In this document: positions 9,173 through 13,214 of the stretch, piece by piece
How the letters are laid out: the number at the start of each line of letters is the position of its first letter
Position numbering within the stretch: the first letter of the stretch is position 1
Notes under the pieces: generated by a model
Databases searched by the model: none
Told to the model about the DNA's origin: nothing
What the model saw: only the letters and a program-made list of their open reading frames with translations
NCBI RefSeq assembly: GCF_054482595.1
Contig: NZ_CM137008.1
Reading direction: 5' to 3' (one strand)
DNA length: 64,000 nt
Program-made: the position numbers and the translations under genes

Positions 9173-10051
9173 GCCAGTGACCTAATTAATAATAAACTCA
9201 ATCGGAATTAATAATGACAGCCTTTCGTGCCGCATTTAAGGCATATCGTATGCATCAGGTGTTAATAATGCCTCGCTTTGCACGGCTTACCATTGCCCTT
9301 GGCTTAGCAACTGCGGTATTTCCCGTTGACGCAGAGTATTATTTTAATCCACGGTTTTTAAGCAATGATCTTGCTGAATCTGTCGATTTATCCGCCTTTA
9401 CTAAGGGACGCGAGGCACCACCTGGTACATATCGGGTCGACATTTATTTGAACGACGAATTTATGACTAGTCGGGATATTACTTTTATTGCAGATGATAA
9501 TAACGCAGAACTCATCCCATGCCTGAGTACAGATCTTCTTGTCAGTCTTGGTATAAAAAAAATAGCGTTATTAGACAATAAAGAACATTCGGCAGAAAAA
9601 CATGTGCCGGACAACAGCGCATGCACACCACTTCAGGATCGTTTGGCCGACGCATCAACTGAGTTTGATGTTGGTCAGCAACATTTGTCACTCTCCGTTC
9701 CGCAAATTTATGTTGGCAGAATGGCTCGCGGCTATGTTTCTCCTGATCTGTGGGAAGAAGGAATAAATGCTGGGCTTCTAAACTATAGTTTTAATGGTAA
9801 TTCTATTAATAATCGTAGTAACCATAATGCAGGAAAATCAAACTATGCATATTTGAATTTACAGAGTGGCATCAACATTGGTAGTTGGCGACTACGCGAT
9901 AACTCAACGTGGAGTTATAACAGTGGGAGTAGCAATTCATCTGACAGCAATAAATGGCAGTAGACTGGCCCCCTGAATCTCCAGACAACCAATATCACTT
10001 ATTTAAGTGATAGTCTTAATACTAGTTTTTAGACTAGTCATTGGAGAGCAG

Positions 10052-10417
10052 ATGATTGATGTCTTAGGACCGGAGAAACGCAGACGGCGTACTACACAGG
10101 AAAAGATCGCTATTGTTCAGCAGAGTTTTGAACCGGGAATGACAGTCTCCCTTGTTGCCCGGCAACACGGTGTGGCAGCCAGCCAGTTATTTCTCTGGCG
10201 CAAGCAATACCAGGAGGGAAGTCTTACTGCTGTGGCCGCAGGAGAACAGGTCGTTCCTGCCTCTGAACTTGCTGCCGCCATGAAGCAGATTAAAGAACTC
10301 CAGCGCCTGCTCGGCAAAAAAACGATGGAAAATGAACTCCTTAAAGAAGCCGTTGAATACGGGCGTGCAAAAAAGTGGATAGCGCACGCGCCCTTATTGC
10401 CCGGGGATGGGGAGTAA
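10052..10417 (+). CDS. insC: IS2 OrfA (InsC), HTH transposase subunit
   Basis: Translation [40 protein letters not shown]... Confidence 0.85.
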
Positions 10418-11280
10418 GCTTAGTCAGCCGTTGTCTCCGGGTGTCGCGTGCGCAGTTGCACGTCATTCTCAGACGAACCGATGACTGGAAAGATGGTCGC
10501 CGCAGCCGTCACTCAGATGATACGGATGTGCTTCTCCGTATACACCATGTTATCGGAGAGCTGCCCACATATGGTTATCGTCGGGTATGGGCGCTGCTTC
10601 GCAGACAGGCCGAACTTGATGGTATGCCTGCGATCAATGCCAAACGTATTTACCGGATCATGCGCCAGAATGCGCTGTTGCTTGAGCGAAAACCCGCTGT
10701 ACCGCCATCGAAACGGGCACATACCGGCAGAGTGGCTGTGAAAGAAAGTAATCAGCGATGGTGCTCTGACGGGTTCGAGTTCCGCTGTGATAACGGAGAA
10801 AAACTGCGAGTCACGTTCGCGCTGGACTGCTGTGACCGTGAGGCACTGCACTGGGCGGTCACTACGGGCGGCTTCAACAGTGAAACAGTACAGGACGTCA
10901 TGCTGGGAGCGGTGGAACGCCGTTTCGGCAACGAGCTTCCGGCGTCTCCAGTAGAGTGGCTGACGGATAATGGTTCATGCTACCGGGCTAATGAAACACG
11001 GCAGTTTGCCCGGATGTTGGGGCTTGAACCGAAGAACACGGCGGTGCGGAGTCCGGAGAGTAACGGCATAGCAGAGAGCTTCGTGAAAACGATAAAGCGT
11101 GACTACATCAGTGTCATGCCCAAACCAGACGGGTTAACGGCAGCAAAGAACCTTGCAGAGGCATTCGAGCATTATAACGAATGGCATCCGCATAGTGCAC
11201 TGGGTTATCGCTCGCCACGGGAATATCTACGGCAGCAAGCCAGTAATGGGTTAAGTGATAACAGGTGTCTGGAAATATAG
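10375..11280 (+). CDS. insD: IS2 OrfB (InsD), DDE transposase catalytic subunit; GTG start overlapping an A6G slippery heptamer for the -1 frameshift that makes the OrfAB fusion
   Basis: 301-aa ORF with integrase-core motifs; AAAAAAG at approx 10369-10375 in the insC/insD overlap. Confidence 0.85.
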
Positions 11281-13214
11281 GGGCAAATCCAGGCAGCATA
11301 TCAATACGTCGGCTGAACGTGACATTATTCCCTTACGCTCACGGTTAACGGTAGGTGATAGTTATACCGATGGCGATATTTTTGATAGTGTGAACTTTCG
11401 TGGCCTCAAAATAAATTCAACAGAAGCGATGTTGCCCGATAGCCAACATGGTTTCGCTCCTGTGATTCATGGTATTGCCCGTGGAACCGCACAAGTGAGT
11501 GTAAAACAGAACGGATACGATGTTTATCAGACTACTGTTCCACCCGGCCCTTTTACTATTGATGATATCAACTCTGCGACCAATGGTGGTGATCTGCAAG
11601 TAACCATAAAAGAGGCAGACGGCAGTATTCAGACATTATATGTTCCTTATTCGTCTGTTCCGGTTCTCCAACGTGCTGGATATACGCGTTATGCGCTTGC
11701 CATGGGGGAATATCGTAGTGGAAATAACCTGCAAAGCTCTCCCAAGTTCATACAAGGTAGCTTGATGCATGGTCTGGAAGGAAACTGGACACCTTATGGC
11801 GGAATGCAAATTGCAGAAGATTATCAGGCCTTCAACCTTGGTATTGGGAAAGATTTAGGACTTTTTGGTGCCTTTTCTTTCGATATCACGCAGGCCAATA
11901 CGACACTTGCAGATGGCACCCGTCACAGTGGGCAATCGGTTAAATCCGTCTACAGCAAATCCTTCTACCAGACAGGAACCAATATCCAGGTCGCAGGATA
12001 TCGCTATTCTACGCAAGGTTTTTATAACTTATCCGACAGTGCCTACAGTCGAATGAGTGGTTACACCGTCAAGCCTCCTACCGGAGACAGCAATGAGCAG
12101 ACACAATTTATTGATTATTTTAATCTGTTCTACAGTAAGCGTGGTCAGGAACAAATAAGCATCTCTCAGCAGCTTGGAAATTACGGTACGACATTTTTCA
12201 GTGCCAGTCGCCAAAGTTACTGGAACACGTCACGCAGCGACCAGCAAATATCATTTGGATTAAATGTGCCGTTTGGTGATATTACGACTTCACTGAATTA
12301 CAGCTATTCCAATAATATATGGCAAAACGATCGGGATCATTTACTCGCTTTTACGCTTAATGTTCCCTTCAGTCATTGGATGCGTACAGACAGTCAGTCG
12401 GCATTTCGTAATTCAAACGCCAGTTACAGTATGTCAAACGATTTGAAAGGCGGCATGACCAATCTATCGGGGGTTTATGGCACTCTGCTGCCGGATAATA
12501 ACCTGAATTATAGCGTTCAGGTCGGTAACACCCACGGAGGTAATACATCGTCTGGCACCAGTGGTTACAGTTCTCTTAATTATCGTGGAGCTTACGGTAA
12601 TACGAATGTCGGTTACAGTCGGAGTGGTGACAGCAGCCAGATCTATTACGGAATGAGTGGTGGGATTATTGCTCATGCTGATGGCATCACCTTTGGACAG
12701 CCGCTGGGCGACACAATGGTTCTGGTTAAGGCTCCTGGCGCTGATAATGTCAAAATAGAGAACCAGACCGGAATTCATACCGACTGGCGTGGCTATGCAA
12801 TATTACCATTTGCGACAGAATATAGAGAAAATCGTGTCGCTCTTAACGCGAATTCCCTTGCAGATAATGTTGAACTGGATGAAACCGTAGTCACTGTCAT
12901 CCCAACTCACGGTGCTATTGCCAGAGCAACATTTAATGCACAAATCGGCGGGAAAGTATTAATGACGTTGAAGTACGGTAATAAAAGCGTTCCATTCGGT
13001 GCAATTGTCACTCACGGAGAGAATAAAAATGGCAGCATTGTCGCGGAAAATGGTCAGGTTTATCTGACTGGACTTCCACAGTCAGGGAAATTACAGGTTT
13101 CATGGGGCAATGATAAAAACTCAAACTGTATTGTCGATTACAAGCTTCCTGAAGTCTCTCCTGGAACCTTGCTGAACCAGCAGACAGCAATCTGTCGCTA
13201 AGGAACAATAGATT

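Follow-up and report, generated by a model that had tools for sequence, protein, structure and literature searches.

IS2 is among the oldest known insertion sequences (ISs), and IS2A of Escherichia coli K-12 (insC1/insD1; IS3 family, IS2 group) is the copy against which we compare the element described here. The role of the A6G window in IS2 and the lengths of its inverted repeats (42 and 41 bp) have been described previously, and the same paper states in general terms that intrinsically curved DNA is found close to IS2 targets (PMC3299598). The F9 (Yde/Fml) chaperone-usher operon has been described by Wurpel et al. 2014 (PMC3966885), who reported its gene order and its hipBA and ydeP flanks, its repression by H-NS and expression at 20 °C, a transcription start 251 nt upstream of the major-subunit ATG, and disruption of the operon in 40% of 42 surveyed genomes, all phylogroup A genomes included. 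Here we examine a stretch of 64,000 nucleotides from contig NZ_CM137008.1 (assembly GCF_054482595.1; "the window" refers to this whole stretch), in which a complete IS2 splits the usher gene of an F9 operon. We hold with high confidence that IS2 transposed into this gene at codon 249/250 in an E. coli lineage resembling strain Santai, that the insertion was inherited by many isolates and followed by a later deletion, and that the site is a recurrent IS2 target. No sequence evidence contradicting this explanation was found.

The element and the gene that it interrupts comprise the following features (all on the plus strand, except that no strand is assigned to the two copies of the target-site duplication):
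9214-9960: usher 5' fragment, codons 1-249, with signal peptide, PapC_N and the first ~36 barrel residues (open reading frame (ORF), Pfam; 100% identical to Santai)
9956-9960: target-site duplication GGCAG, left copy (sequence; a single GGCAG at the empty site in Santai and many others)
9961-11291: complete IS2 isoform (IS3 family), 1331 bp (end-to-end alignment with K-12 IS2A)
9961-10002: left inverted repeat (IRL), 42 bp, starting TAGACTGG (gapped alignment of the two repeats; lengths as in PMC3299598)
10052-10417: orfA (insC), 121 aa, HTH_Tnp_1 (K-12 InsC identity, NCBIfam, Pfam PF01527)
10369-10375: A6G (A AAA AAG), programmed -1 frameshift window in the orfA/orfB overlap (sequence; role as in PMC3299598)
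10375-11280: orfB (insD), 301 aa, rve integrase core (InsD comparison, NCBIfam, Pfam)
11251-11291: right inverted repeat (IRR), 41 bp, ending GGGGCAAATCCA (gapped alignment of the two repeats)
11292-11296: target-site duplication GGCAG, right copy (sequence)
11297-13201: usher 3' fragment, codons 250-883 plus stop (ORF, Pfam; 100% identical to Santai)

A preliminary description of this DNA had reported a complete 1331-bp IS2 with canonical termini, insC and insD, and alignment to K-12 IS2A, NCBIfam and Pfam all bear this out; the A6G heptamer that it placed in the insC/insD overlap lies at 10369-10375, and the GGCAG direct repeats that it saw at 9956-9960 and 11292-11296 are present in the sequence, with one copy at empty sites. 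Read directly, the left junction passes from AATAAATGGCAG into TAGACTGGCCCCCTGAATC, and the right junction from GGGGCAAATCCA through GGCAG into CATATCAAT. Positions 9950-9975 are ATAAATGGCAG followed by TAGACTGGCCCCC, and positions 11280-11300 are GGGGCAAATCCA, GGCAG and CATA. The length of 1331 bp (about 1.3 kb in the group), the imperfect inverted repeats of 42 and 41 bp in the known pattern, the TA/TG...CA ends and the 5-bp duplication are those of the IS2 group, and the ends are identical to those of K-12 IS2A except at one IRR base and at IS positions 42-43, the inner edge of IRL. The NCBIfam models "IS2 repressor TnpA" (238.8 bits, cut-off 229), "IS2 transposase TnpB" (706 bits, cut-off 597) and "IS3 family transposase" (an equivalog; 281.5 bits, cut-off 160) all match, while Pfam finds rve (8.4e-19), rve_3 (9.1e-18), HTH_Tnp_1 (5.3e-18) and HTH_21 in the ORFs. 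Both a DDE (rve) core and an N-terminal helix-turn-helix (HTH) are therefore represented, and the candidate residues D240/D306/E342 are the same as in K-12. An Rfam scan of the window gave no match in or near IS2.

The A6G heptamer occurs once in the element, in the 0-frame register A AAA AAG of orfA, and the orfB frame is open from 10357, upstream of its annotated start at 10375. A conceptual -1 fusion (10052-10375 joined to 10375-11280) gives a stop-free OrfAB of 409 aa, the predicted frameshift product. Where K-12 IS2 has AAG, a synonymous substitution to AAA gives orfA of the window an A7 run at 10316-10322, 53 nt upstream of A6G. This run was rejected as a second frameshift site because it is out of register and the -1 frame is closed until 10357; separately, it could be a site of transcriptional slippage. 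With its intact ORFs and ends this copy looks functional. Copies identical over all 1331 bp occur on numerous chromosomes and plasmids of E. coli, and 324 records contain a copy that is at least 99% identical; because identical copies lie at many other loci, the window's IS2 is evidently a common and mobile isoform. Taking over the mechanism known for IS2, the element would have moved by copy-out/paste-in via a minicircle, using an OrfAB transposase produced by -1 frameshifting at A6G, and a staggered cut at GGCAG would have produced the 5-bp duplication.

Excision of 9961-11296 (1336 bp) fuses 9214-9960 to 11297-13201 in a single 883-aa ORF with PapC_N at 43-195, Usher at 213-795 and PapC_C at 804-868, for which NCBIfam gives a fimbrial biogenesis usher as the top match; the earlier proposal that the halves of a FimD-type usher rejoin in frame once 1336 bp are removed thus holds. 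IS2 follows usher codon 249, just within the barrel domain. Its first three bases (TAG, 9961-9963) are in frame with the usher, such that the ORF 9214-9963 stops at the junction. The truncated usher has no IS-encoded tail and can therefore be followed from assembly to assembly as an identical protein of 249 aa. The usher is thus truncated to this N-terminal fragment, and F9 fimbriae would remain unassembled, since chaperone-usher pili need the usher barrel; it is from this requirement that we infer a loss of fimbriation.

A transposition into an intact gene is also supported by genomes in which the site is empty. We compared a 600-bp reconstructed site with 5426 complete E. coli genomes. The predicted site (...AAATGGCAGCATATCAAT...), which the preliminary description had proposed to look for, is uninterrupted in 3701 of them, many being 100% identical. 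It is likewise empty in O157:H16 strain Santai (NZ_CP007592.1), which is collinear with the whole 64-kb window and in which the 883-aa usher is annotated as intact. Santai and the window differ at 2 positions in 1-7769 and at 3 in 17158-64000, and are identical over 7769-9960 and 11292-16000, for a total of 5 single-nucleotide polymorphisms (SNPs) plus two structural changes, IS2 and an 878-bp deletion; it is in a lineage with this near-identical 64-kb haplotype that the insertion would have occurred. A 5-bp repeat alone would be expected by chance at 1/1024, but GGCAG is single-copy in otherwise identical haplotypes, and it is therefore a target-site duplication. On whether reference genomes carry this copy, a point the preliminary description had left aside, K-12 MG1655 has no target site and so cannot carry it: all that is left of its ydeT is the C-terminal 382 codons, homology with the window beginning again at 11975. 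The window's isoform was found at this site in no RefSeq complete genome.

Beyond the complete genomes, the exact 249-aa truncated usher is recorded in many assemblies (24 contigs examined, from 56 index blocks). A 5.19-Mb contig, GCA_974490525.1, is 100% identical to the window over 7769-17963 (10.2 kb), the entire IS included, and the draft GCA_036915555.1 matches across the junction of the deletion as well as the left junction of the IS. The insertion had been called clean and probably recent. The first part stands, given the identity of the IS and the surrounding 10.2 kb to GCA_974490525.1 and of the flanks to those of empty-site genomes; "recent" applies in a relative sense only, the insertion having been inherited by many public assemblies. 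The same 249-aa usher and left IS junction also occur in two contigs (L021 and L023; GCA_005399725.1, SRR30416854) whose flank haplotype is ~0.3% different, and in which the autotransporter gene upstream is broken differently from that of the window. The insertion in these two, judged from their flanks, may be a further independent event or a recombinant.

The second structural change affects the same operon. In the window the operon has the order major subunit, chaperone, usher, ydeS, ydeR, ydeQ and is bounded by hipBA and ydeP, in agreement with the published organisation (PMC3966885); NCBIfam gives FimC-, FimD-, FimF- and FimG-like matches, as is appropriate to an F9 chaperone-usher cluster. 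Its first gene is truncated at the 5' end and its usher is split. The remaining features are (plus strand, except the junction, which has none):
7769-7770: junction of the 878-bp deletion relative to Santai (Santai alignment; common to GCA_036915555.1)
7770-8101: segment that adjoins the deletion junction (Santai comparison)
8462-9172: F9 periplasmic chaperone gene, ORF intact (ORF list, NCBIfam, homologue annotation)
13215-13745: ydeS, ORF intact
13758-14261: ydeR, ORF intact
14321-15235: ydeQ, adhesin, ORF intact (FimH_man-bind domain in the ydeQ homologue)

The deleted 878 bp comprise the remnant of an HTH gene, all sequence upstream of the major-subunit gene and the first 231 bp of that gene. 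Of the lost sequence, 647 bp lay upstream of the major-subunit ATG and included the mapped promoter position (PMC3966885). Microhomology at the junction amounts to 1 bp only, and the junction has no single-piece match among the 5426 complete genomes, the draft GCA_036915555.1 being the one assembly in which it was seen. In GCA_974490525.1 the IS, its junctions and the haplotype are all identical, yet the 878 bp are still present, from which it is most likely that IS2 came first and the deletion second, the IS being a lineage marker. This order is the most parsimonious one, assuming that the identical IS and haplotype in GCA_974490525.1 reflect the same event.

On sequence grounds, the window's F9 operon is doubly dead. 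As it lacks its native promoter, an intact major subunit and an intact usher, polarity of the IS on ydeS, ydeR and ydeQ, which the preliminary description had expected, is not the decisive defect in the window. In relatives with the IS only, such polarity is plausible by inference: translation would stop at the junction, leaving the ~1.9 kb of usher 3' sequence up to ydeS untranslated. A consensus scan, which is a weak test, found no plus-strand promoter-like site near 11270-11330 that could form a hybrid promoter where IRR meets the usher and read outwards into the downstream genes.

The same survey indicates that this insertion is one of several. In four other complete genomes an IS2 occupies this GGCAG and is flanked by the same duplication:
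PA45B: plus orientation, third isoform
D10: plus orientation, K-12-type isoform
EPSSH018: inverted, K-12-type isoform
CREC-2: inverted, 98% identical to the window's IS

These carriers differ from each other and from the window by orientation or by more than 4% of the IS sequence, and fall into three isoform groups. The parsimonious reading is that there have been five independent insertions at one GGCAG. This usher has IS2 at no fewer than 18 other positions within about 1.2 kb, in the plus orientation at about -378, -282, -276, -98, -53, -41, +59, +69, +96, +143, +281 and +764 from the site, and inverted at about -23, +32, +34, +240, +770 and +782; junctions were read for eight of these, while the remaining positions were estimated from the spans of joined matches. 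Further along the operon, TUM18780 and TUM18530, which have the same flank haplotype as the window and an intact usher, carry a 100% identical IS2 in the 5' end of ydeR (window equivalent 13788-13792, duplication GCTAC; 6001-7331 of L009), which is another independent hit on the F9 operon. Each of the nine other IS2 sites (eight in the usher and one in ydeR) has a 5-bp duplication, and these are distinct at each of the eight usher sites. The duplicated 5-mers GGCAG, GCTAC, GTGTG, GTAGG, GTTAT, CCCGA, TCTGC, TTATT, CTCAA and ATAAA show no consensus and no palindromic symmetry.

Mimicry of the inverted repeats at targets has been described for some IS3- and IS30-family elements. As a candidate explanation here it was rejected: local alignment of the 85-bp target with each inverted repeat, in both strands, gives a score of 14, against a mean of 14.2 for shuffled sequences (282 of 500 reach 14), and other stretches of the usher do no worse. 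The hot site consists of a GC-rich 5-mer with flanks of 20% GC in an operon of 44% GC, a composition that fits, if loosely, the preference for curved regions that has been reported for IS2. We found nothing specific in the literature on an IS2 hot spot in ydeT/f9. On balance, we lean towards the view that GGCAG at codon 249/250 is a genuine IS2 hot spot, set by local sequence or DNA structure and used at least five times independently, by three isoform groups and in both orientations, within a regional hot target of ~1.2 kb that has at least 20 other sites.

A possible but less favoured reading of the repeated hits is that they reflect selection for, or tolerance of, the loss of F9 rather than target preference by IS2. 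The disruption of f9 in 40% of 42 genomes, including all of phylogroup A, by deletions as well as insertions (PMC3966885) is consistent with this, as are the second, unrelated lesion in the window itself and the occurrence of insertions at many sites and in both orientations. Such selection, however, predicts insertions spread along the gene and not five independent events at one base pair, and at least 21 of the 51 genomes in which the 600-bp site is broken carry IS2. Selection or tolerance probably contributes to the regional excess, but accounts only with difficulty for five hits at the same base pair. The regional enrichment is itself only a rough estimate.

It is very improbable that the window, PA45B, D10, EPSSH018 and CREC-2 all inherited a single ancient insertion that was precisely excised elsewhere. 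Five genomes do share the exact site and the GGCAG duplication, and the IS divergence between the window and PA45B (4.1%) is near that of their flanks (about 3%). However, the IS is inverted in EPSSH018 and CREC-2, the three isoform groups are ~4-5% apart and do not track flank relatedness, and over 24.7 kb the window flanks are matched at 100% identity by genomes with an empty site. We also know of no precise IS2 excision on such a scale. The differences in orientation and isoform effectively refute this alternative. The chance that a repeated IS2 was misplaced into the usher during assembly is negligible: although IS2 is multicopy and draft contigs often break there (five of them, L020-L024, end inside the IS), the 5-bp duplication is perfect at both junctions, the usher halves rejoin exactly, the identical structure recurs unbroken in an independent contig of 5.19 Mb (GCA_974490525.1), and numerous draft contigs enter the IS from the same base.

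Two further observations concern other genes of the window. ORFs at 244-4308 and 4337-5665 together represent a large ESPR/pertactin autotransporter (yneO / ECSE_1600 family); the Santai homologue is annotated as frameshifted, making this another decayed surface-protein gene beside hipBA. Rfam SECIS_3 matches at 53844-53902 (minus strand, 84.3 bits) within fdnG, and the two ORFs there (51437-53848 and 53897-54484) accordingly reflect a selenocysteine UGA and no true disruption.

Taken on its own, the insertion is an ordinary event of a known kind, with a known IS in a known and frequently decayed operon, and it is already present in public assemblies. The allele is useful as a lineage marker, and for annotation the usher is best treated as a pseudogene and the operon as promoterless and non-functional. 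Insertions at the same base by different isoforms and in both orientations make this site a natural target for experiments on IS2 target choice, and they caution that a shared IS position in different strains does not always mean identity by descent. If the hot spot is real, this operon, which we take to be H-NS-silenced, would offer a natural substrate for studying target choice by IS2 and by copy-out/paste-in elements generally, which is to our knowledge still poorly understood.

Compared with K-12 IS2A, the window's IS2 has the same length of 1331 bp with zero indels, the same IRL/IRR architecture and orfA/orfB layout, the A6G window and the 5-bp duplication, but is 95.6% identical at the nucleotide level, with 59 substitutions, one of them inside IRR. 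OrfA has 0 changes in 121 aa relative to K-12 InsC and OrfB 10 in 301 aa relative to InsD (96.7% identical), so that most of the 59 substitutions are silent at the protein level, which is what continued selection on a transposase gene would lead one to expect. By the ISfinder convention, two copies belong to the same IS at roughly 95% or more nucleotide and 98% or more amino acid identity; at 95.6% and, for OrfAB, 97.6% (10 of 409 residues different), the two lie at its edge. From these comparisons, the window's IS2 is an isoform distinct from K-12 IS2A, and is itself widespread. The usher IS2 copies of PA45B, D10, EPSSH018, CREC-2, SCU-116, EM10-18-28 and other strains and the ydeR copy of TUM18780 belong to the same family and have 5-bp duplications, but vary in isoform, orientation and host background; they are independent events. 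The closest parallel to the fate of the operon as a whole is K-12 ydeT/yneL (Wurpel et al. 2014, PMC3966885), where the operon likewise lies between hipBA and ydeP and the F9 cluster is cryptic or dead in a commensal-type background. In K-12, however, the major subunit, the chaperone and the 5' half of the usher have been deleted, whereas the window combines an IS2-split usher with an 878-bp deletion that removes the promoter.

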